A DNA stretch of 64,000 nucleotides from an uncultured bacterium (GTDB lineage Bacteria > Zhuqueibacterota > QNDG01 > DTFT01): NCBI GenBank assembly GCA_963736115.1, contig CAVTNR010000008.1, positions 128,001-192,000 of the forward strand, read 5' to 3'. The position numbers were made by a program, and so were the translations under genes. Below the pieces are notes generated by a model. The model was not told where the DNA came from and ran no database searches. It saw only the letters and a list, made by a program, of their open reading frames with translations. Position 1 is the first letter of the stretch; each line of letters begins with the position of its first letter. Below, one piece after another: positions 3,073-49,696 of this stretch.

Positions 3073-3993
3073 ATGCTGAACGAGAAAATCCGTTTGCTGT
3101 ATTTTTCCAGAGGGACAGGTCTCAGGCAGTTCAGTCTCAACCCCAAGCAGTTCTACACCTATTCCGCGGCAGGCGGTTTCGCCCTCCTTCTTGTTCTGAG
3201 CATCGGCATTCATCTCATTACCGGGCTTTTCCACGACATCCGCATTGATTCGCTGAAGCAGAACCGGGACGAACTGCAGAAAGAGCTGATCGCGATGAAG
3301 GAGAAAATCGCGGTCCTCAACGGGTATGTGTCCGAGGTCGAGAATACGGGGGACATGCTCCGGAACGTGGCCGGGTTGCCGGCCATCGACCAGGACGTCC
3401 GGCAGGTCGGCGTCGGCGGACCCTACTCCGCCAATATCCCGGAATACCAGTATCTCAATGACGAGGTCAGCCGCACGGCCGCGGAGGCCAGGAATGATCT
3501 GAACAAGATCGAGCGCGAGATCCGGCTCGAACGGGCAAGCCTTCAGGAAATCAACCTGCTGCTCGGCGAACAGAAGACGCGCGCGGAACAGCTCCCCAGC
3601 ATACGCCCGATTCTCGGCGCGAAGGTCATTGAGAATTTCGGTCTGAGGATGGATCCTTTCCTCGACAAGATCGCGTCACATGAGGGAGTCGACGTTCCCA
3701 TGCCCCTCGGAACCAAGGTGCTCGCCACGGCCGCTGGAACGGTCAAGGTCGCGAAGACCATATACACGCCGTACAAGAGTTACGGCATGGAAGTCGTGAT
3801 CGACCACGGGTATGGATTCGAAACACGGTACGCCCACCTTTCCAAGATTCTCGTTTCACCCGGACAGCGCGTCAAGAGATGGCAGGCCATCGGCGAGGTC
3901 GGAGAAACAGGGAGGGCTACCGGTCCCCACCTCCATTACGAGGTTATGAGCTCGGGAAGACCCATCAATCCCTCATTCTTCATGTTCAACTGA
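3073..3993 (+). CDS. M23 family peptidoglycan endopeptidase (TM + coiled coil + M23)
   Basis: HEGVD (HxxxD), YAHL and GPHLHYEV (HxH) motifs. Confidence 0.92.
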   Translation: MLNEKIRLLYFSRGTGLRQFSLNPKQFYTYSAAGGFALLLVLSIGIHLITGLFHDIRIDSLKQNRDELQKELIAMKEKIAVLNGYVSEVENTGDMLRNVAGLPAIDQDVRQVGVGGPYSANIPEYQYLNDEVSRTAAEARNDLNKIEREIRLERASLQEINLLLGEQKTRAEQLPSIRPILGAKVIENFGLRMDPFLDKIASHEGVDVPMPLGTKVLATAAGTVKVAKTIYTPYKSYGMEVVIDHGYGFETRYAHLSKILVSPGQRVKRWQAIGEVGETGRATGPHLHYEVMSSGRPINPSFFMFN

Positions 3994-17270: not shown

Positions 17271-17497
17271 AGTTCATGGTTCATGGTTCATAGTTCATAG
17301 TTTAATGAAAATGGGAGCGGGTCCGATATGCCCGCATCTTTTTGCGGGCCATCGGACAAATCCATGAAGATGTCCGAAAGCCTCGTCCGCTTCACGGTTT
17401 CGGCCGCTTCACGGTTTCGGCCGCTTCGCGGCCTCAACATTTCGGACCTACAACTATGAACCATGAACTATGAACTATGAACTATGAACTGTGAACT
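17271..17497. repeat. composite repeat: (GTTCATR)n arm, inverted REP pair, inverted (YATGAAC)n arm
   Basis: Heptamer arrays at 17271-17302 and 17452-17497; GTCCGA...TCGGAC palindromes at 17321-17358 and 17371-17452. Confidence 0.85.
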
Positions 17498-22222: not shown

Positions 22223-22669
22223 ATGGACTTCGACTCTTTTATGTCCCGTTATTTCTGGATCGTCCTTCCCGTTTTCTGGGTTCTCATGTGCCGGCTGGTC
22301 GCCCGGATAAGCGGATGGAATGCCCTGGCCGAATCCTACGCGGCCCAGTCCGACGCCACTGGAACGATTCTCCGGTTCCAGAGCGGTTCCTTCCGCTGGA
22401 GCGCCAATTACAGCGGGCTGCTGAATGTCGGAGCGGACAGCAGCGGACTGCACCTGTCCGTGATCATGTTTTTCAAGCCCGGGCATGCGCCGCTGTCCAT
22501 CCCGTGGAGCGACATTCGGGCCGAACCGCATGGCGTGTTCACGCCGGCGGTGCGCCTGACCTTCAGCCGCAATCCGAAATGTCCGCTTTTCATTTCCGGA
22601 AATCTGGCGCAGAGGATCGCAACGATGAGCGGGGGAGGGTTTACGGTGCCGGCGCAAAAGAGTTCATAG
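22223..22669 (+). CDS. membrane-anchored hypothetical protein
   Basis: GGAGGG RBS; N-terminal TM; SGW..LA..Y, GLHL, PLSIPWSDI. Confidence 0.75.
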   Translation: MDFDSFMSRYFWIVLPVFWVLMCRLVARISGWNALAESYAAQSDATGTILRFQSGSFRWSANYSGLLNVGADSSGLHLSVIMFFKPGHAPLSIPWSDIRAEPHGVFTPAVRLTFSRNPKCPLFISGNLAQRIATMSGGGFTVPAQKSS

Positions 22670-22782
22670 TTGATAGTTCATGGTTCATAGTTAGAAAAAC
22701 GTGAAATGTAGCTCTGTTTTTCACTATGAACCATGAACTATCAACTATGAACTGTTTTTTTGTTAACCATGAACTATGAACT
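22661..22782. repeat. inverted heptamer arrays
   Basis: 22661-22691 and 22723-22753 are exact 31-bp reverse complements, including the variant unit. Confidence 0.9.
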
Positions 22783-33988: not shown

Positions 33989-36211
33989 TTAAGGTGCCAT
34001 TTTCAGCACGCTCCCGCCGGACCTTTCGATTTTTTCCTTGTCCCACAAGTCCGGCCTGAAATTGTCCCCTGTGAACAAATTCATCTGATCCCTGTAATGG
34101 AGGTCCATGACCTGACCGGATTGGCCGGTCGATAGGCAGGATACGGAACGGTCGAAGTCCGAAAGGTCGATGATGAGTCTGGCCGATGGCCCTGAAACGA
34201 TATGGAACTGCGGGCCTCCGGAGGCATGCGCCCAGCCTTCGATGCTCGACATGGATTTACCCATCGGGAACGGATGCGTTTTAAAGAAGTCCCGGAAGGG
34301 CCAGCGTCCCCCGAGCGGATGGTCGAATTGAAGTTCGTGCACGCCTCCCCAGTTCCATGCTTCAGGCTTGTCCCCTTGTTTTTCCTTCATCGCTGAAACC
34401 GCATCGGCAAAGCTTTTCTCAATGACAGCGACATGCGATTTTACGGCCCATGGCCTGGTCAGGCTGTCCTGAAGCATATCGAGGCGCAGGGACGGGATGC
34501 GCATCGCGAGCCCTGCCGCAACAGGAGGGGATCCGACCTGAATGAGGTTCGAACTGAGCCGGTCGAGAAAGGTTTCGGCCAGAGCCGCGGCCGGACTGCC
34601 GGACCGCATGTCGCCGTCCCATGCGGAAAGCAGGCGCAGGCCGGCGGTTTCGACGGAATCGGTGCGCTGAGCGCGGGTCAATGCGGGAAGAGCGAGACGG
34701 ACGAGAAAGGAAGAACGGACGGAGACCGCATCCGCCAGAAGTCTGCGGCTGTCCGAAAGGGAGACCGGCTGGGAATCGGGCCAGACAGCGGAAAGCCTGC
34801 TGAAGCGGGGGAGGGACCGCGAGTCCGGCGGTACGGGCCGGTCGAGGTTTCCGTTGCAGAGAAACCCCGGGGATGTGATCCATACGGTCCGGGAGTCCGG
34901 CTTGTACCGGACCGGACAGCGCCGGAAATGCCGACGCCGCCCTGCGTATCCGCCGCTATCCAGGAGAATCCGGGAAGCCGGAGGCCAGCGCTTTTCGACA
35001 GGAATTCATCCGCGGTGGCAGCCTTATTCATGTTCAGCAGAACCGCGGTCTCGTCGGCAGGCTCCAGGCCGGCCCATTCCAGAACCACGCCTGACATTTT
35101 ACGGCCGGGTCCGGGTGATGGGGGTGCGCGGCAGACCAGGGGGCCTGAGGGCAGGCGACCAATCTCGATTGGAATATCCGGCGCGTTCAGAACGGCCAGC
35201 GTGTCCCTTTTAAGAACCGGCTGTGCAGATTCGTCCCAGGACACTGCGCGCCAGGGTGTCCGCTTTTTCTCCTGAAGGCGAGAAAGCCCAGGCCGTGGAA
35301 CCGTTGTGGCCCGCGAGCACGAGCGGATAACCGGGAACCATGAAGCCGGAGGCCTCGAAATCCGGGCATCGGAGAACGGCCTGATACCAGGGCGAGGGAA
35401 TCTGCACGGCCGAGTTCGCGACAAAAATCAGCAAAGGTCTGCCTGAATAGGTCCGGGGCCCGGAAACGGCAAGACCAAAAGTGCCCATCAAAGGATCCGG
35501 AGTGAGTCCTTCAGGTTCCGGCTTCCGGACAGCCGCGTCCAGCATGGCGAGAAGGCGGTCAGACGGGTCCGCGGGGATTTGCCTGTCTTTGTCCGGCTTC
35601 GGGACTGCGGACAGAGCCTGACGCACGGGTTGCGTGAGCCACCGCGAGTCCGCCTGCCAGGCGAACAGGCGGAGAACCGATATGCAGTCGGCCGCGGTCC
35701 AGGGCTCGAAAGCGGCATTGAGAAACCTGAATTCGACGGGAATACGCGAACCGGACGGGCCGGCGGACGCGTTCACCCCTGCCGCGTACGCGTCCATGAT
35801 TTCAGCGGATTCCGGGGAAAGGGACATGGCCGCTTGACGGGCCGCGTCCGCCAAACCGATTTTCCGCATCAGGCTGTCCACAGCCGCGGCCTCAGGACCC
35901 AGCCATTCGGACAGCCTGCCGGCCGCGGTGCGGCGGGACAGTTCCATCTGGAAAAGCCTGTCCTGGCCAGTCACGTATCCCAGGCTGAAAAAGAGGTCGC
36001 GCCTGGACGAGGCGGCGATCGCGGGCACGCTGTAGCTGTCGCGCGTCACGCGTACTTCAGCGGACAGGCCGGACAGCCGGATTTTCCCCGTGCGGTCCGG
36101 CAGGGACGAAACGACCGTGCGGTAGCCGTTTATGCACAGCAGAAATACACCGGCTCCGGCGATGAGGGCGGTCAGGCATCCGAAGCGGATGCGGATTTTG
36201 GGTCTGGGCAA
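33989..36211 (-). pseudogene. penicillin acylase (S45 Ntn hydrolase) family, multiply frameshifted and degenerate
   Basis: RDSYSVPAI, QDRLFQMEL.RR..GRLSE, ADTQG, WGGVH..HPL, GQSG..HY.DQ across three or more frames. Confidence 0.8.
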
Positions 36212-36512: not shown

Positions 36513-36872
36513 TGGTGGAGACGGTGGGAATTGAACCCACGTCCGAAAACAGAACACCCCGGAATACTACGTGCGTAGCCCTATCATTTGATCTTGCCCG
36601 GGGCACCCAAAGGGCTGGGATCCCAAGGCCAAGTCCGCTGTTGTCTCGCCGGACTTCCGCGGACATGAAGCCGGCCAGCCCGTCTTAAGCGACGCCCCTA
36701 TACGGCCCCGACAGGCGCGGGCCGCGAGGGACGGGTTGCCTATTTAACTAGGCAGCCATGGCATACGAGTAGTTGTTGCCATTTAATCTGTTCCCGGATT
36801 ATTTACCAGGGTCCAGGAACCTGGACACGCATTCCGAGACCTTACTGAATCCGTCGAATCCAGTTCGTCCCC
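36513..36872 (-). ncRNA. ssrA: tmRNA, tag (A)GNNYSYAMAA
   Basis: 5' GGGGACGAACTGGATTCGAC; 3' GTGGGTTCAATTCCCACCGTCTCCACCA; G3-U wobble; tag frame 36780-36748 ending TAG; TTGACA-N17-TAACTT promoter at 36923-36895. Confidence 0.96.
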
Positions 36873-39064: not shown

Positions 39065-39172
39065 AGTTCATAGTTCATGATTCATAGTTCATAGTTGAAA
39101 ACAGAAAAGATTCTATCGGGATGAACCGTAAGCTTCTTTTCCATGAACTATGAACTATGAACCAGGAACTAT
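39065..39172. repeat. inverted heptamer arrays
   Basis: (GTTCATR)n 39065-39096 and (YATGAAC)n 39141-39172. Confidence 0.85.
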
Positions 39173-39646: not shown

Positions 39647-39839
39647 AGTTCATAGTTCATGGTTCATAGTTCATAGTTGAAAAGCGGATGGAGGCGGTAC
39701 TATCTATTCTCTTTTAAGTTGAGTTCATAGTTCATAGTTGAAAAAACCAAAAGGGGAAATAGTTCATGGAAAAAACGAGAGCGGACTGTTTTCATGATCT
39801 CTATTTTAACTATGAACCATGAACTATGAACCATGAACT
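39647..39839. repeat. inverted heptamer arrays
   Basis: (GTTCATR)n 39647-39678 and 39722-39739; (YATGAAC)n 39808-39839. Confidence 0.85.
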
Positions 39840-39844
39840 GTTTT

Positions 39845-42247
39845 TCAGTACTTCCCCGGCGCGAAGCCGAGGTAGGGGCTGGAATGATCGGTTTCCCTTC
39901 CTGCGCGGTATTTCAGGTACAGCATGGCCGAGTGGTGGTAGGTGACCGGGTAGTCCCGTATCAGGTAGGCCAGGGACCGGTAATCCTTCTTTTCCAGATC
40001 CGGTTCAGCCGTGAGAAGGGCTTCGAATGCCAGGCCTCCCAGTATCCCGTCCGGAATCACGATGAGACTGCGTCCACGGATCCAAGGCTCGACGGGCCTG
40101 ATCAGCGTTTTGTAGCACCAGAACGCGTCCTCCGCGTAACGGCCGTAGTCCATTTTCACGATGCCCTCCCGCACGCCGTGGACGCGGCGCTCCAGGATAG
40201 TATCCCTGGGCAGGCGCACGGTTTCGAACAGGCCGGCCGTGATGACGAATATCGTGACGAAGCGGTCTCCGATGAAATATTCCACGAGCGCGTCTTCGGG
40301 TTTCAAGAGCCTTTTCCGCAGGTCCTCCACGGTGACGGTATACGTGCCGTACCGCAGGCTGAGAAATTCCGGGTATTCCCTGTCGAACCGGCCGATGATT
40401 TCGTCCCATTCGCGTTTAATCTTGAACCGGCGCGCTTCCAGGGACTTCAGGCGGCTGTCGTCCGCCGCCGTCCCGTTCCCCATCTCGTCCCGGATGACCT
40501 TTTTGCAGTCCCCGAATTCGATCCGAAGCCGGTTCTCCTTCTCAATCAGGTCGGCAGGGACTCTGCCAAGGCGCATGGCCTGCTTGTCCATGACCGACCG
40601 CATCTGGATAAAGACCTTGCTCTTTTCGGAAAAGAAGAAAGCTTTTTCCTTGAACCCCTCATTCCCGGTCAGCCGGTGGAGCTCGAGCGCCGTTTCGACC
40701 CCATGTTCGAATATAAAACGGTAATCCGAGGCCAGATCGAGCCTCGGCTCGATGGACAGCATGCCTCCGCCGATACGGTCCATCAGCCGCATGGCCAGCT
40801 CCCAGTTCGTCAGGGCCGCCTCCAGGTCGGCCGGGGACCGGCTGACGCGGGTGTAGCGTTCCCCGAAGGTTTCCGCCTTCAGACGTAAAAGGGGGAGCAT
40901 TTGGAAGTCCACGTCCGGCCCGTCGATCTGCGGATTCGACGCAGGATCGAACCCGCTGAAGCCGGGAACCGCGGCGAGAACCGCGTCCTGCAGGGACCGG
41001 AGCGCGGCCGCATAATTCCCTTTTTTTCGATGCACGTTGGCAATGGCCTTGTGCGACTCCGAGGTCCAGTTGGAATACCGGCCCAGCTTTTCCAGCCGGA
41101 GATCGAGCGATTTACCGTAAAAAGCCAGAGCTTCGTCCAGTTCGCCGCGCCGGACCTTGACATGCCCGATCCGGAAAACCGCCTGCGCCGCCTGAAGCAA
41201 GGTCGATTCCCTGTTTTTGGCGCAGACAGCCAGGCATTGTCGGTAACAGCGCAGGGCCTCTTCCGTTTTTTTCTGCCGCCAGAAGATGTAGCCCATGTGG
41301 TTGTACACGCCCGCGACCGAAGGATGGTCCGGCCCCAGGGTCGTGACGTAGGCCGAGAGGGCCTTTTGCTGGAATGCCATTGCCTTCGGGAAGTCGTCTT
41401 CGAGCAGGGCCAGGGACCCGAGGTTCTCGTACGCACGGCCGGTTTCCGGATGCGCGTCGCCGAAATGCAGCTTGTTGATGTCGAGCGCCCGGCCGTAGAA
41501 AAGTCCGGCGTTTTCCCAGTCGTGCCGGCTCTTGTAGACATTCCCCATCTGCAGGTAGACCTGCGCGAGGTCCGGATGGTTTTCGTCGCGGCATTTCCGC
41601 AGTATGGCCAGTGCCGTGTCGAGGTAGGCCAGTGCGGTCGGATATCGGGTCCTGGCGATGTAGACTTTTCCGATGCGACGGTACGCCATGCCGAGAAGCG
41701 GGCCGTCCGCGGCCGCGAGGGGCAGGGCGCGGAAATAGCAGCTCAGCGCGCTGTCGAAATCGTTCCGTTCGAAACGGAGCTGTCCCAGTCCTGCCCAGGA
41801 GGCCGCGGTTTCCGGCCGGCCGGGGCCGAGCCGGGTATCGGCGATCTGCATGGCGCTGTCGAAGGCCGCATGCGCCGCGTCGAATTCCATGCTCTGAATC
41901 CGGTTCTCACCTATGCCGTTGAGGCATCGGACTACGCTGGACCAGTCCCTTTGCGCGGCGGCCAGCGTCATGGCCCTGCGGAAACTCAGTATGGACGGAC
42001 CGTGCCGGCTGTCGAGAAGCTCCTGCTCGGCCGTGACCATGAGGGAATGAATCCGATCCGAACCGGAACCATGCGCGGAGGGATCCGTTCCCGAGCCGCC
42101 GTGACGCGGAACGGGATTCGCGATCCAGAGCGCGACGAGGAGAAGGATGACCGCGAGAATCCAGGCCCTGGTATTGAAGGCCAAACAGACCTTTTTGAAA
42201 CCGGCCGTGAACCGGCGGCCGGCCCCGCGGCCCGGGGCCCGTTTCAT
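39845..42247 (-). CDS. membrane-anchored TPR protein ending in the N-terminal, non-catalytic half of a CHAT domain
   Basis: N-terminal TM; kinesin-light-chain-like TPRs (HPDLAQVY, HPETGRAY, HPSVAGVY); AF..SEKSK; LVEYF; LIVIPDG.L..L.FEAL; stops at YLGFAPGKY. Confidence 0.85.
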   Translation of the reverse strand: MKRAPGRGAGRRFTAGFKKVCLAFNTRAWILAVILLLVALWIANPVPRHGGSGTDPSAHGSGSDRIHSLMVTAEQELLDSRHGPSILSFRRAMTLAAAQRDWSSVVRCLNGIGENRIQSMEFDAAHAAFDSAMQIADTRLGPGRPETAASWAGLGQLRFERNDFDSALSCYFRALPLAAADGPLLGMAYRRIGKVYIARTRYPTALAYLDTALAILRKCRDENHPDLAQVYLQMGNVYKSRHDWENAGLFYGRALDINKLHFGDAHPETGRAYENLGSLALLEDDFPKAMAFQQKALSAYVTTLGPDHPSVAGVYNHMGYIFWRQKKTEEALRCYRQCLAVCAKNRESTLLQAAQAVFRIGHVKVRRGELDEALAFYGKSLDLRLEKLGRYSNWTSESHKAIANVHRKKGNYAAALRSLQDAVLAAVPGFSGFDPASNPQIDGPDVDFQMLPLLRLKAETFGERYTRVSRSPADLEAALTNWELAMRLMDRIGGGMLSIEPRLDLASDYRFIFEHGVETALELHRLTGNEGFKEKAFFFSEKSKVFIQMRSVMDKQAMRLGRVPADLIEKENRLRIEFGDCKKVIRDEMGNGTAADDSRLKSLEARRFKIKREWDEIIGRFDREYPEFLSLRYGTYTVTVEDLRKRLLKPEDALVEYFIGDRFVTIFVITAGLFETVRLPRDTILERRVHGVREGIVKMDYGRYAEDAFWCYKTLIRPVEPWIRGRSLIVIPDGILGGLAFEALLTAEPDLEKKDYRSLAYLIRDYPVTYHHSAMLYLKYRAGRETDHSSPYLGFAPGKY

Positions 42248-42258
42248 TCCGCGTGTTT

Positions 42259-43089
42259 TCACGGACGCAATTTCCGTTTCGCCGGCCGATGGCCGCGCTT
42301 CATCCGCGTCCATGCGAGGCCCGCGGCCAGGGCGGCGGCCGCGAGACACCCGGCCGCGGCGAGGCTTTTCCGGGTGCGGGACGATGACGGCTTCAAGCGC
42401 AGGGGTTCCACGCTCCCGGACTGGACCATGCCGGCCCAGAAAATCGGATTGGCGCTCCTGGCGTCCGCGTTTTCCAGCCAGGCCAGTTTCGCGTCCCGGA
42501 GTGCCACATGCTTTCTGCGTCCGGCCGCGAGCCCATCGTAGTACGCGGCCACCAGGGTTGACGATGACCTGTCGTCCACGGGCCAGAGGCTCATCAGAGC
42601 GCTGTTGCATCCGGTGAGCATGAAACAGCGTCCCAGGCTGAGGTATCCGTCTCCCTCGGCCAGCACGCCCGAGCCCGTGTTGCAGGCGCTGAGCACGGCC
42701 AGGTCCGCGGAGAATCGCATTTCGTAAATTTCGTGCATGTAGAGGACGCCGTCCTGGCCTGACCCGGCATCGGGCGAGAGGATGAGGCCGGTATCCGCGT
42801 TGTTTTTCTCGTCTACGACACAATGTGTGGCGATGTGGAGGATGCCGGCTTTCGGGGCTTCCCGCTTGAAGCGGCTTTCCGTGGCCCGGCCGCCGCAATA
42901 GGCCTTACCGTGCGCGCGGCCCGCGACCGCGGTGACTTCCCGTTCCGCCCAGCTCAGGCGTATCATGGCCGGCCTTGCGGAATCCGCGGGGGCCTTGCTT
43001 TTAATCGAACGGGAAACGGGACCGGAACCGCCGCAGGACCACAGCAGCAGGACCGCGGCTGAACCGATGAGGACAAGGGGGATTCGGAT
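42259..43089 (-). CDS. lipoprotein carrying the catalytic caspase-like half of a CHAT domain plus C-terminal TM
   Basis: Lipobox LWSC; AEREV; ATESRFK; ILHIATHC; LAVLSACNTG; MSLWPVDD; PIFWAG. Start inferred at an ATC codon after AAGGAG. Confidence 0.82.
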   Translation of the reverse strand: MRIPLVLIGSAAVLLLWSCGGSGPVSRSIKSKAPADSARPAMIRLSWAEREVTAVAGRAHGKAYCGGRATESRFKREAPKAGILHIATHCVVDEKNNADTGLILSPDAGSGQDGVLYMHEIYEMRFSADLAVLSACNTGSGVLAEGDGYLSLGRCFMLTGCNSALMSLWPVDDRSSSTLVAAYYDGLAAGRRKHVALRDAKLAWLENADARSANPIFWAGMVQSGSVEPLRLKPSSSRTRKSLAAAGCLAAAALAAGLAWTRMKRGHRPAKRKLRP

Positions 43090-43150
43090 GACCGTTCTCC
43101 TTGAAGGGCGGGCCCCCGCTCGCCGCGGGAGTGCGGGGGAAAAGTTCCGG

Positions 43151-43951
43151 CTACGGACCGGGCGCGTTCCGCCGCAGGCGTCCGGCCAGTTCGGCGGATT
43201 CCCGGCTGAACGGTCCTCCCACGAGGCGGAGGGTGTCGAGCAGGGCCAAAGCGTCTTCGGTTTCACCCTGCCGGACGTGGCAGAGCGCCGCGTACCAGGC
43301 GGCCTGCAGTTCCCAGTCGCTTCCGCGGCTGAGCGCCGCTTCCCTGAGATGGGACAGGGCCGAGCGGGTGTCGTTCATGGCCAGGCTGGAGATTCCCGCG
43401 TAGAAATGCGCGGTCGCGTTCTCCGGTTCGCGGGCCAGAAGGGTTTCGAGCATGATACGGGAGCCCTGGTAATCGCCGGCATCGTATTCGGCCATCGCGT
43501 TTTCCAGCCATCCGGCCGGTTCCTGACTGCGGAACAGAGGGACGGTGTTCGGATACGGCTTGAAATAGGAGTCGAACAGGCTGTTCGTTTCCGGTCCGCG
43601 GGAAAGGACGGTCAGGAGCACAACGGCCGTAACCGGAATCAGCGCGGCCAAACCCAGAACCCAGACTCTGCCGCGCCTGCGTTCCGGAGTCCGGGACAGG
43701 CGCGACGCCCTCGCGCGAAGCTTGAGTTCCGAGACGGTTTTACCGGCAGTTACCGGATCCCCGGCCGCTTCCATGCCGTCCATGGCCTCGGAACAGAACA
43801 GGCAAGCCGCCAGGTGCTCCTCGATTTCGCGATGATCCGCGGCCGTGCCGCGGCCGGACGCGTAAGCCGCGAACTGGTCGAAGCTCAGGCATTGCGTCTG
43901 CCGGAATATGCCGCACACGGGCAGGGCCGGCTTCCGGACGTTTTTCTTCAT
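43151..43951 (-). CDS. zinc-finger anti-sigma factor with TM and extracytoplasmic TPR domain
   Basis: HLAACLFC; TM; LFDSYFKPYPN; FYAGIS; AAWYAAL; ATGA overlap with the sigma gene. Confidence 0.85.
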   Translation of the reverse strand: MKKNVRKPALPVCGIFRQTQCLSFDQFAAYASGRGTAADHREIEEHLAACLFCSEAMDGMEAAGDPVTAGKTVSELKLRARASRLSRTPERRRGRVWVLGLAALIPVTAVVLLTVLSRGPETNSLFDSYFKPYPNTVPLFRSQEPAGWLENAMAEYDAGDYQGSRIMLETLLAREPENATAHFYAGISSLAMNDTRSALSHLREAALSRGSDWELQAAWYAALCHVRQGETEDALALLDTLRLVGGPFSRESAELAGRLRRNAPGP

Positions 43952-44514
43952 TTTTCCCCTCCCGCGAAACGGGTTGCCGCAATCTTCAGGTTTCTTCTTC
44001 CGTTCTGGATACTGCTTTTCACCTGCCTGACCGGGACGCCCATGATTTCCGCGATTTCCCGGTAGGACTTCCGTTTCAGGTAAAAGAGCTCGACGCACGT
44101 TCTCTGCTCCCCGTCCAGTCCGGCGAGCAGGGTCTCGCAGTCCGGAAGATCCCTGCCTGTAAGATTCAAAAAGTCCCCGTTTTCCACAACCGCGGCGTCC
44201 TTTTCCATCAGCGGCCTGAAAATCATTTTCAGGCGCGAGGCCTTGCGGAGCCGCATCAGGCAGTGGTTTTTCGTGACCGCGTGCAGCCAGGCCGGCACAT
44301 TGGAGACCCGGTGTTTCCCGGCCTCGGACAGGAGTTTGTGGAAGATGTCCATGACCGCGTCCCTGCATTCCTCCTCGTCTTTCAGGTATTTCCGGCACAC
44401 GAGGAAAATTGTGTGGCTGTAGCGCAGGAACCAGGATTCCACGGTAGCGGCGTCGGGTACGGTGAGCTCTTGGGAAGGTGAGGAAGATTCGGATTTACCG
44501 AATGGAATTCGCAT
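43948..44514 (-). CDS. ECF sigma factor (Bacteroidota-type)
   Basis: CRKYLKDEEECRDAVMDIF; WLHAVTKNHCL; QRTCVELFY..SYREIA..VKSSIQNGRRNL. Confidence 0.92.
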   Translation of the reverse strand: MRIPFGKSESSSPSQELTVPDAATVESWFLRYSHTIFLVCRKYLKDEEECRDAVMDIFHKLLSEAGKHRVSNVPAWLHAVTKNHCLMRLRKASRLKMIFRPLMEKDAAVVENGDFLNLTGRDLPDCETLLAGLDGEQRTCVELFYLKRKSYREIAEIMGVPVRQVKSSIQNGRRNLKIAATRFAGGEK

Positions 44515-44874: not shown

Positions 44875-45100
44875 ATAGTTCATGGTTCATAGTTCATAGT
44901 TCAGCTGAAGGTCCGAAATGCCGAGTCCCGCCCCCGGATCCAGTCCGTGGCAAGCCATGCGGGACGAGGCTTTCGGACATCCGTTAAGAAAAGTCCGATA
45001 GCCTCGCTGAGGATATGCTCGGCATATCGGACCTACAATGCTTTTTTTACTATGAACCATGAACTATGAACTATGAACTATGAACAATGAACCATGAACT
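44875..45100. repeat. composite repeat: heptamer arm, inverted REP pair, inverted heptamer arm
   Basis: Arms 44875-44902 and 45049-45100; GTCCGA..TCGGAC palindromes 44911-44979 and 44993-45037. Confidence 0.85.
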
Positions 45101-49378: not shown

Positions 49379-49696
49379 AGTTCATAGTTCATGGTTCATA
49401 GTTCATAAAAAAATCATAAGGGGGGTGTCATTCCCGCATTCTTTAAGCGGGAATCCAGGGGTGGGGTGGAAAGTAGGCCGAGTCGCGGCGCGCGGTTTTT
49501 TGCGCGGCTATCGGACAACTCCGTGTCCGGTTGAAGGTATGGTAGCCGCAACCCTTCAATATTCTCAAGATATAATGGTTTGGTCCCGTTCATCGGGGCT
49601 TTAGGTTGCGCTGGTCAGCTTTTATAGATCCGAAATGCCGGGTCCCGCCCCCGGATCAAGTCCGGGGCAAGCTTTGCGGGACGAGGCTTTCGGACA
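49379..49696. repeat. cluster of several palindromic repeat families
   Basis: Heptamers 49379-49406; GTCATTCCC repeat 49427-49458; REP 49473-49517; interrupted GTAG REP 49542-49610; REP with CCCCGGATCAAGTCCGGGG insert 49625-49696. Confidence 0.75.

Follow-up and report, generated by a model that had tools for sequence, protein, structure and literature searches.

A probable split CHAT protease

Two adjacent minus-strand genes in the window (the whole 64,000-nucleotide stretch of DNA analysed here) probably encode a single two-chain CHAT cysteine protease, anchored in the inner membrane and facing the periplasm; sequence comparison and structure prediction lead us to give this reading a probability of about 0.75. 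The enzyme would belong to a circularly permuted branch of the family whose canonical members run signal peptide, TPR, CHAT and C-terminal TM helix. A complete CHAT domain in N-to-C order within one polypeptide is absent: the domain is divided between two genes, of which the one carrying the C-terminal part (gene A) comes before the one carrying the N-terminal part (gene B). The two ORFs, the one CHAT part on each and the swapped order are as the original prediction had them.

Chain A would comprise a leader, the caspase fold from its second strand onward with His89 and Cys136, and a C-terminal TM helix. Chain B would open with a TM helix, continue through the TPR array and a helical region, and close with the N-terminal subdomain of CHAT, whose last strand is LGFAPGKY. 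This strand would complete the sheet of A beside its His-bearing strand, and the TM helices of A and B would take the place of a TM hairpin that links the same parts in single-chain relatives. We infer that assembly of the two chains is obligate. In the literature searched we found no published description of a circularly permuted or split CHAT architecture.

Table 1 Features of the locus, with positions in the window.
Feature	Position	Strand	Basis and remarks
ECF-type sigma-70 factor	43948..44514	-	188 aa from ATG; ORF open to TTG 44604
Anti-sigma-like protein	43151..43951	-	N-terminal H-x3-C-x2-C (HLAACLFC), one hydrophobic helix, C-terminal TPR domain
Shine-Dalgarno-like hexamer AAGGAG	43097..43102	-	7 nt before ATC 43089; same in window, L001 and L003
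Gene A, CHAT catalytic half, 276 aa	42259..43089	-	Pfam CHAT, alignment; ATC start argued from L001
Make-up of gene A			Hydrophobic leader, caspase-fold strands after beta1 with His/Cys dyad, C-terminal TM, basic tail
His89 codon (HIATHC), proposed catalytic His	42823..42825	-	Invariant in 8/8 C-halves
Cys136 codon (LSACNTG), proposed catalytic Cys	42682..42684	-	Invariant in 8/8 C-halves
Gene A C-terminal TM helix, residues 242-260	42310..42366	-	Hydrophobicity scan; basic tail TRMKRGHRPAKRKLRP after it
Gene B, TM-TPR-CHAT N-terminal half	39845..42313	-	822 aa from ATG 42313; 800 aa from ATG 42247
Gene B N-terminal TM helix, about residues 27-43	42119..42169	-	Hydrophobicity scan; Arg/Lys-rich segment before it
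TPR array, about residues 114-424, kinesin-light-chain-like	40976..41908	-	Pfam TPR_12, 168 bits, 5 stretches
CHAT N-terminal subdomain, residues 710-793	39869..40120	-	Pfam CHAT profile 6-82/289; aligns to P0010 up to LGFAP
C-terminal strand YLGFAPGKY, residues 792-800	39848..39874	-	Proposed beta1 of the caspase fold, in trans

The catalytic chain

Gene A matches the C-terminal portion of the Pfam CHAT profile (PF12770, positions 102–289 of 289) with 154.2 bits against a cut-off of 24 (E = 6.7e-45); an NCBIfam search matched it to no family. Both catalytic motifs, HIATHC and LSACNTG, lie in this gene, and their His89 and Cys136 we take, by the CHAT family motif, to be the catalytic dyad. Along with His85, these residues are invariant in all eight aligned short C-halves. 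Hydrophobic segments at residues 1–22 and 242–260 of gene A and at residues 20–48 of gene B, found by hydrophobicity scan, agree with the earlier view that both products are membrane-anchored.

The ORF coordinates given for the pair stand, but both gene starts need revision. Position 43089 is an ATC codon, and from the hydrophobic leader back to GTG 43266 there is no ATG, GTG or TTG. Downstream of the leader is the next ATG (MIRLSW), the start picked by gene callers for the relatives P0030 and P0031; translation from it would deprive chain A of its signal peptide and overturn the periplasmic model for the window's subclade. We argue for initiation at ATC 43089 by comparison with the related locus L001, where a TAA stop lies in frame 20 codons ahead of the ATC and no ATG, GTG, TTG, CTG or ATN intervenes; GTG 43266 is for the same reason an unlikely start. 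The strong DNA conservation of the AAGGAG–ATC region is weakened as proof of function, since this region is the end of a block, about 90% identical between loci, that contains the sigma and anti-sigma genes. Read-through of the anti-sigma stop into gene A was set aside as well, the stop being in frame only in L001 and not in the window or L003.

The bacterial lipobox, [LVI][ASTVI][GAS]C, lies at the end of the signal peptide. The corresponding site of gene A is weak (LWSC, with an unusual Trp at −2); it reads LSSC in L001 and LAGC in L003, which both fit, and LSRC in P0029, which does not. P0032–P0035 and the fused permuted forms have no such lipobox Cys.

The TPR chain and the break point

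Gene B probably starts at ATG 42313 (MDADEAR...) rather than ATG 42247, as alignment suggests: the Met at 42313 is kept in all three of the closest full-length relatives, and that at 42247 is replaced in two of them. With this start, genes A and B overlap by 55 nt. Residue numbers of chain B are counted here from ATG 42247. Best PDB sequence matches for its TPR array are TPR proteins, and NCBIfam returned only sub-threshold TPR models for the gene. Its Pfam CHAT match covers profile positions 6–82 of 289 with 21.9 bits, below the 24-bit cut-off (E = 1.4e-4).

Taken together, the two genes cover the CHAT profile except for positions 83–101, which bears out the expected complementary coverage. 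In the fused relative P0010, LGFAP lies at residues 815–819 and the catalytic part aligns from residue 859; gene B is 28% identical to this protein over 732 aligned columns and gene A is 36% identical to its C-terminal part. The break thus falls just after the LGFAP strand, at the subdomain boundary, as predicted.

Gene B ends with LGFAPGKY followed by the stop codon. A GFAP-x-x-Y ending is shared by all eight TPR halves compared (49–86% identity), in which G794, F795, A796, P797 and Y800 are invariant and among the best-conserved residues of the protein.

A circularly permuted branch

Single polypeptides with the catalytic part first make up 7 of 150 listed representatives and 18 of 107 further proteins. 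These run from a signal peptide through the catalytic part, two TM helices and TPRs to an N-part ending in GFAPxx[F/Y]; two adjacent TM helices follow the catalytic part in the seven representatives scanned for hydrophobicity. A GFAP-like motif, defined as [GA][FLM][AS]P and located by reading protein tails by eye, lies at most 13 residues from the end in 24 of the 25, P0245 being the exception. One of them, P0054, is collinear with both window genes, its residues 22–227 matching 43005–42400 and its residues 271–1031 matching 42100–39848. P0054, P0076, P0086, P0098, P0134 and P0167 share the order of parts with the window pair and fall in the same clade on trees of the catalytic segment; their sources list them simply as 'CHAT domain-containing protein'.

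The existence of these proteins overturns the statement that single chains always place the TPRs before the catalytic part. Because they share the swapped order and P0054 is collinear with the pair, the swap appears to be a circular permutation at the level of the family, not a peculiarity of the split form. The window pair shows every part that defines the branch: catalytic part first, then TM helix, stop and TM helix, TPRs and a GFAPGKY end. The single-chain forms are one polypeptide with a TM hairpin; the window, L001 and L003 differ from them by a stop and a fresh start within the predicted cytoplasmic loop, which yield two chains.

By position of the catalytic part, 120 of 185 proteins are canonical, with named examples from Catalinimonas, Adhaeribacter, Aquimarina, Fulvivirga, Bacteroidales and Saprospiraceae. 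Most canonical rows have a hydrophobic segment at the C-terminal end, as read by eye from the scan. These proteins have the same domains, catalytic motifs and kinds of membrane signals at both ends as the window pair, but as one chain they run TPR, N-part, C-part and TM. The permuted forms have their new termini in the variable linker that follows LGFAP.

In the hairpin, TM1 is the counterpart of the C-terminal TM of gene A, and TM2 that of the N-terminal TM of gene B. By the positive-inside rule, the soluble parts of both chains would face the periplasm, and the split would lie in the cytoplasmic loop of the hairpin. The targeting signals that the original prediction saw on each half need not have been acquired separately: TM helices at the C-terminus of A and the N-terminus of B match the C-terminal anchor and N-terminal signal of most canonical relatives, and only the leader of A and the stop of B appear to be new relative to canonical forms. 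The original prediction had also held that a simple frameshift could not produce the arrangement. This is sound with respect to a canonical gene but not with respect to a permuted single chain, for which a stop or frameshift in the loop between the TM helices suffices.

A FastTree phylogeny of 179 rows contains one clade of 23 (support 86) with all seven fused forms and 14 short C-halves. Outside this clade are five short rows (P0090, P0179, P0193, P0041 and P0053). In the first three an AFAP- or AFGL-type strand precedes the catalytic part, and these rows resemble pieces of canonical proteins. An IQ-TREE quick tree of 62 rows, which left out P0090, P0179, P0193, P0041 (a fragment) and the partial P0037 and P0047 and kept P0053, has a 17-row core clade with support 88. 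The window lies inside the clade holding all seven fused representatives. A tree holding all 22 permuted and split rows together has a log-likelihood 15.9 higher (p-AU 0.767); a single clade of permuted and split forms is thus compatible with the AU test, at modest tree support (86 and 88).

Three proteins (P0048, P0051 and P0061) are tandem double units. We infer that the permuted form arose when a canonical gene was duplicated in tandem and the redundant ends were lost; the hairpin or gene junction would then consist of the former C-terminal anchor and the former signal peptide. Circular permutations named in PMC3320104 include those of DNA methyltransferases, saposin/swaposin and transhydrogenases. 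Compared with these, the TPR-CHAT family shows intermediates of both textbook models, the tandem units pointing to permutation by duplication and the separate halves to fission and fusion; it differs in being another protein family and in that its old termini are joined by a membrane hairpin made from anchor and signal sequence. It would be a natural and well-populated case of circular permutation in a multi-domain membrane enzyme.

Predicted assembly of the two chains

The halves are predicted to assemble: the multimer model of A and B scores 0.82, against 0.00 for the best of three controls. Of 80 solved complexes 58 pass the score mark, as do 2 of 110 mismatched pairs; these counts are only rough because own alignments were used. 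Runs share at least 76% of contacts, with a partner pLDDT of at least 78. In the model the C-terminal LGFAP strand of B lies next to the His-bearing strand of A, with B residues 784–798 and 800 contacting A residues 59–67 and 80–88, and B residues 793–795 contacting His85. The interface comprises 220–227 contacts and resembles that within a single domain. The score may reflect mere likeness to solved single-chain CHAT, separase and craspase folds, as expected for the halves of one domain. If the model is right, a caspase-fold domain tolerates a sheet strand from another chain.

We consider it very improbable that the two products act independently, A as a minimal stand-alone protease and B as a TPR scaffold with a vestigial CHAT remnant. 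Gene callers and databases do treat the halves as separate, separately named proteins, and the CHAT match of B is under the Pfam cut-off; yet the last residues of B are invariant in 8/8 rows, the same ending closes 24/25 of the single-chain permuted relatives, the two genes diverge in parallel, and the model sets the end of B inside the sheet of A. With a two-chain enzyme, the pipeline names 'CHAT domain-containing protein' and 'tetratricopeptide repeat protein' would conceal one enzyme.

Whether joining of the chains is itself a switch was the other proposal of the original prediction, which had the protease active only once the sensor and catalytic halves dock. On this reading the halves stay apart in the membrane until a signal sensed by the TPRs causes them to dock, completing the fold and turning the protease on. 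In its favour, the catalytic half has neither the LGFAP strand nor the N-terminal subdomain and should have no activity by itself, the two chains are anchored in the membrane separately, and the split state is maintained throughout the window's subclade. We nevertheless find regulated docking unlikely: the genes are adjacent or overlapping, which makes joint synthesis of the halves probable; relatives in the same clade have these parts permanently joined by the TM hairpin; and the very large predicted interface is typical of an obligate assembly and not of reversible docking. Sequence and model together make an obligate, constitutive two-chain enzyme the likelier reading.

Conservation of the split

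The same pair, in the same order and with the same stop in gene B, is present in the independent assemblies L001 and L003, which answers the search for the split order elsewhere. L002 begins inside the TPR half and is informative for the gene B stop only, which it shares; L004 and L005 are generic TPR matches at 22–23% identity and were set aside. The overlap of genes A and B is 55 nt in the window and L001 and 4 nt in L003. A reverse change in the short cytoplasmic loop would fuse the two genes.

The two genes diverge in parallel, A and B being 87% and 81% identical to their L001 counterparts and 57% and 53% identical to those of L003. Estimates of dN/dS are 0.22–0.39 for gene A and 0.30–0.46 for gene B, at dS up to 1.19. 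The idea that the pair is an assembly error, or a TPR-CHAT gene that was lately disrupted and rearranged and is heading for loss, draws on the uncultured source organism, the MAG contigs that are its closest relatives and the missing canonical start codon of gene A. It is close to refuted by the recurrence of these junctions in L001 and L003 (and of the B stop in L002), by protein clusters from several sources with the same forms, by dN/dS below 0.5 in both genes, which indicates purifying and not relaxed selection, and by intact catalytic residues; a tblastn search of the whole 64 kb also turns up no leftover pieces of A or B outside the pair. On these comparisons the swapped, split arrangement is conserved and not a broken gene.

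The sigma/anti-sigma neighbourhood

Directly upstream in the window, L001 and L003 is a sigma gene, and the order sigma, anti-sigma, C-half, TPR half is kept in both informative loci (L001 and L003). The sigma factor is 91–92% identical to its copies there, with Pfam Sigma70_r2 and r4_2 matches and an NCBIfam sigma70-ECF score of 62 bits (cut-off 42.9). Its stop overlaps the anti-sigma start by 4 nt. The anti-sigma-like gene stops short of gene A, and its TPR part is no more than a short domain (Pfam TPR_16 and TPR_19); Pfam zf-HC2 has no match in it at E ≤ 0.01. The association with a sigma/anti-sigma pair draws on just three closely related loci (the window, L001 and L003).

Among PDB sequences the C-half profile matches 8rot/8rw5 alone (991 aa; E = 2.2e-7), an entry that by length and name corresponds to DdvA, by sequence the apparent nearest characterized system. 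According to PMC11506125, DdvA of Myxococcus xanthus is an anti-sigma factor with a periplasmic TPR-CHAT domain that controls a CBASS-CRISPR island; autoproteolysis, and CHAT-mediated cleavage ahead of RseP, are proposed, and release of sigma by CHAT-dependent anti-sigma cleavage is, even for DdvA, a proposal. The window resembles it in encoding a predicted membrane-anchored periplasmic TPR-CHAT protein with an ECF sigma factor and a zinc-type anti-sigma N-terminus, and an ECF sigma gene adjoins in the window, L001 and L003. In DdvA, however, the anti-sigma domain, TM, TPR and CHAT form one chain in canonical order, whereas the window has three genes and a permuted CHAT, with the anti-sigma domain and TPR-CHAT in separate polypeptides. 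The 35 window ORFs scanned show no sign of a CBASS-CRISPR island.

Craspase TPR-CHAT (Csx29) and separase have a His-Cys dyad and a TPR part that gates the protease, as summarized in PMC11506125. Likeness to the window extends to the combination of TPRs with a CHAT/caspase-fold protease; both are cytoplasmic single chains in canonical order, and Csx29 partners Cas7-11. The C-half profile has no sequence-level PDB match to craspase or separase at E ≤ 0.001, and the 35 ORFs scanned of 48 selected contain no Cas or CRISPR domain, with no type III-E Cas7-11 association. An Rfam scan gave a tmRNA only, and PADLOC nothing beyond a generic TPR model.

By analogy with DdvA, one can speculate that the two-chain enzyme acts together with the ECF sigma/anti-sigma pair beside it, perhaps cleaving the anti-sigma factor as a site-1 protease gated by the TPRs. 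If the link is functional, protease-coupled envelope signalling of the DdvA type would extend beyond Myxococcota in modular form. Sequence identity falls sharply at the start of gene A between loci that are otherwise about 90% identical. A broader reading, which we regard as doubtful, is that the family retains canonical, tandem double, hairpin-permuted and split stages, and that the split enzyme, whose new chain ends lie at a strand which the model sets within the sheet, has to be completed in trans. In the window's lineage it would serve an ECF sigma/anti-sigma switch as an interchangeable module, sensor and site-1 protease in one, so that the whole would be the equivalent of DdvA in three polypeptides; the drop in identity at gene A would then mark swapping or diversification of sensor cassettes.

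The two genes and their neighbourhood

The locus is best described as a circularly permuted TPR-CHAT protease in two-gene form. Canonical members of the family carry TPRs, the N-terminal part of CHAT (N-part), the catalytic part and a transmembrane (TM) segment in one chain; in the permuted order the catalytic part comes first, followed by a TM hairpin, the TPRs and the N-part. No published description of the permuted architecture was found in the literature searched.

Encoded by gene A is the catalytic half, and by gene B the TM-TPR half with the N-part. The original prediction described two open reading frames, each with half of the CHAT domain and its own membrane segments, and was right in this: the matches to the Pfam profile (PF12770) are complementary in coverage, that of gene B scoring 21.9 bits, slightly below the 24-bit cut-off; on a hydrophobicity scan, gene A has a leader and a C-terminal helix, and gene B an N-terminal helix; and gene B ends in LGFAPGKY.

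Features of the locus and of the surrounding window
Feature	Position	Strand	Description
Housekeeping-type sigma-70 factor, 282 aa	1790-2638	+	Regions 1.2, 2, 3, 4
333-aa ORF	35210-36211	-	Matches only 1-241 of 675-position penicillin amidase profile
tmRNA gene	36513-36872	-	Rfam 186.8 bits; gathering score 47
Gene B	39845-42247 or 42313	-	Pfam CHAT positions 6-82, after strong TPR array
Gene A	42259-43089	-	Pfam CHAT positions 102-289 of 289, 154 bits
Anti-sigma-like protein	43151-43951	-	HLAACLFC motif, one hydrophobic helix, C-terminal TPR domain
ECF sigma factor	43948-44514	-	Heads the minus-strand block
DUF386 gene, then ABC transporter	3' of gene B		Pfam-scanned neighbours
Tandem GTTCAT[A/G] heptamer arrays	17272-17496, 22662-22781, 39066-39162, 39648-39838, 44878-45099, 49380-49406		Intergenic

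Conservation of the split

The split arrangement is real, maintained and conserved. A scan of species-representative genomes returned five loci, three of them true relatives; the split order recurs in L001 and L003, which have the same four-gene order, and L002 starts within gene B and runs on into the same downstream genes. All seven relatives of gene B (49–86% identical) stop at GFAP-x-x-Y, and H85, H89 and C136 are kept in all seven short relatives of gene A. Nei-Gojobori dN/dS is 0.22–0.39 for gene A and 0.30–0.46 for gene B, with dS up to 1.19, compared with 0.13–0.16 for the sigma gene and 0.19–0.30 for the anti-sigma gene. Elsewhere in the 64-kb window, tblastn found no other pieces of either half.

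Permuted single-chain relatives and the break point

A HMMER search with gene A gave 90,122 matches at E ≤ 0.001. The best 150 of these, pooled with earlier matches to give 185 proteins and classed by where the catalytic segment lies, comprised 120 canonical proteins, 7 permuted single chains, 21 short C-halves of the gene A type and 37 others or fragments. The seven permuted single chains (946–1222 aa) consist of a leader, the His/Cys part, two adjoining TM helices, TPRs and an N-part that closes with GFAPxx[F/Y] at the C-terminus or close to it. A search with the homologue P0076 yielded 18 more among 107 new proteins, and P0054 is collinear with gene A plus gene B on alignment. The swapped order belongs to the family and is not particular to this locus.

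On the fused protein P0010 (1045 aa), gene B aligns through LGFAP (residues 815–819) and gene A aligns from residue 859; by these alignment limits the break lies within the 39-residue linker immediately past the LGFAP strand. The C-terminal TM of gene A and the N-terminal TM of gene B look inherited, since in the scan most canonical relatives carry a C-terminal hydrophobic segment and many an N-terminal signal segment. Together the two helices are the counterpart of the hairpin in the single-chain permuted form, and in the window the stop and restart fall in the short basic loop between them. Given the single-chain permuted relatives, two earlier arguments fail, namely that a frameshift could not have produced the arrangement and that the halves work by regulated docking.

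Among the homologues is also P0096 (451 aa), with a catalytic C-half close to that of P0086 and about 240 unrelated residues ahead of it in place of the signal peptide; this odd N-terminus could reflect either an error of gene calling or another kind of fusion.

Predicted assembly of the halves

Multimer structure prediction, which the original prediction had proposed as a check, was run with gene B residues 430–800 and gene A residues 36–232, each with an 8-row alignment. The halves scored 0.82 (runs 0.82, 0.82 and 0.83), against 0.00 for the best of three controls; this is above a mark that 58 of 80 solved complexes pass, as do 2 of 110 mismatched pairs, counts that are only rough here owing to the custom alignments. 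At least 76% of contacts are common to the runs, and partner pLDDT is at least 78. In the model, gene B residues 784–798 and 800 contact gene A residues 59–67 and 80–88, with gene B residues 793–795 lying against His85 of the GILHIATH strand, a geometry that fits the final strand of gene B completing the sheet of gene A. The pass shows that the parts fit together rather than that they bind in the cell, and is expected for halves of one known fold because of their likeness to solved single-chain structures.

Start codons and overlap

The open reading frames originally assigned stand, with both starts corrected: the codon at 43089 is ATC, and the start of gene B is more likely to be the ATG at 42313 (MDADEAR...) than 42247. 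For gene A, the frame in the window is open upstream to a GTG at 43266. In L001, an in-frame TAA lies 20 codons 5' of the same ATC, and between the two there is no ATG, GTG, TTG, CTG or ATN. Placed 7 nt 5' of the ATC is an AAGGAG hexamer common to the window, L001 and L003 (hexamer through ATC at 43087–43102, 3311–3326 and 1786–1801, respectively), and the downstream ATG (MIRLSW) is replaced by Leu in P0029 and P0032–P0035. On these sequence grounds the ATC is the best candidate start; part of the DNA conservation around AAGGAG-ATC follows from its place in the highly similar sigma/anti-sigma block. Being non-canonical, the candidate ATC could keep levels of the catalytic chain low.

The Met of 42313 is present in P0003–P0005, and that of 42247 is replaced by Arg in P0004 and by Thr in P0005. 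With the start at 42313, genes A and B overlap by 55 nt in the window, as in L001; in L003 the overlap is 4 nt.

Origin of the permuted and split forms

Tandem units in a single frame are found in three proteins, P0048 (2061 aa), P0051 (2498 aa) and P0061 (1163 aa). Each of the first two has two catalytic parts, P0048 consisting of two complete TPR-CHAT-TM units one after the other; P0061 comprises a catalytic part (the end of one unit), a TM and a full second unit, and may be cut off at a contig edge. According to PMC3320104, a tandem precursor, such as these proteins represent, is what the permutation-by-duplication model predicts, and the fission-and-fusion model is recognised by separate halves.

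A FastTree phylogeny of 179 catalytic segments contains a 23-row clade (support 86) of all seven fused permuted proteins, 14 short C-halves and two fragments. A quick IQ-TREE tree was built from 62 rows, 22 permuted or split and 40 canonical (5 sister rows and 35 random), with P0013 and P0061 excluded as long branches and P0037, P0041, P0047, P0090, P0179 and P0193 dropped as fragments; it has a 17-row core clade (SH-aLRT 88). Constraining all 22 permuted or split rows together gave a log-likelihood 15.9 above that of the free quick tree and a p-AU of 0.767, so a single origin is compatible with the data, though not proven. The window's own subclade is all split in both trees, which accommodate either order of events, split first or fused first.

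Mosaic divergence from L003

Compared with their L003 counterparts, the sigma and anti-sigma proteins of the window show 91% and 89% identity (dS 0.25–0.30), and those of gene A and gene B only 57% and 53% (dS 1.19 and 0.88). Sliding-window DNA identity falls sharply from 0.85–0.93 to 0.43–0.77 at about 43130, where gene A begins, and stays low to the end of gene B (window 39870–43130 against L003 1760–5004); identity to L001 remains mostly 0.8–0.9. The protease pair thus acts as a single unit whose history differs from that of its regulators. Either recombinational exchange or fast divergence could suffice as the cause.

Possible function

We infer that the soluble parts of both chains are periplasmic, because basic residues lie at the cytoplasmic ends of both helices, following the established positive-inside rule. 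In the PDB, the C-half profile matches by sequence only 8rot/8rw5, a 'CHAT domain-containing protein' of 991 residues (E 2.2e-7), equal in length to DdvA, an anti-sigma factor of Myxococcus xanthus. According to PMC11506125, the periplasmic TPR-CHAT domain of DdvA is proposed to clip itself before RseP, freeing its ECF sigma factor. In all three loci (3/3), neighbouring genes encode, one apiece, the sigma factor, the anti-sigma-like protein and the two halves of the protease. By analogy, a DdvA-like role would be the most attractive idea, if a speculative one.

Other features of the window

Flanking the block from the sigma factor to gene B are two GTTCAT[A/G] elements. The arrays are mostly inverted pairs around 40–170 bp; a 13-mer search allowing one mismatch gave 38 matches against 0.01 expected, and similar sequence is present in L001. 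They resemble an intergenic repeat family of the REP or MITE kind. The tmRNA gene is the sole Rfam match in the window. The gene behind the penicillin amidase reading frame may have been truncated or frameshifted, or the short match may reflect crude ORF choice. The sigma-70 factor is of the short form typical of Bacteroidota and their relatives.
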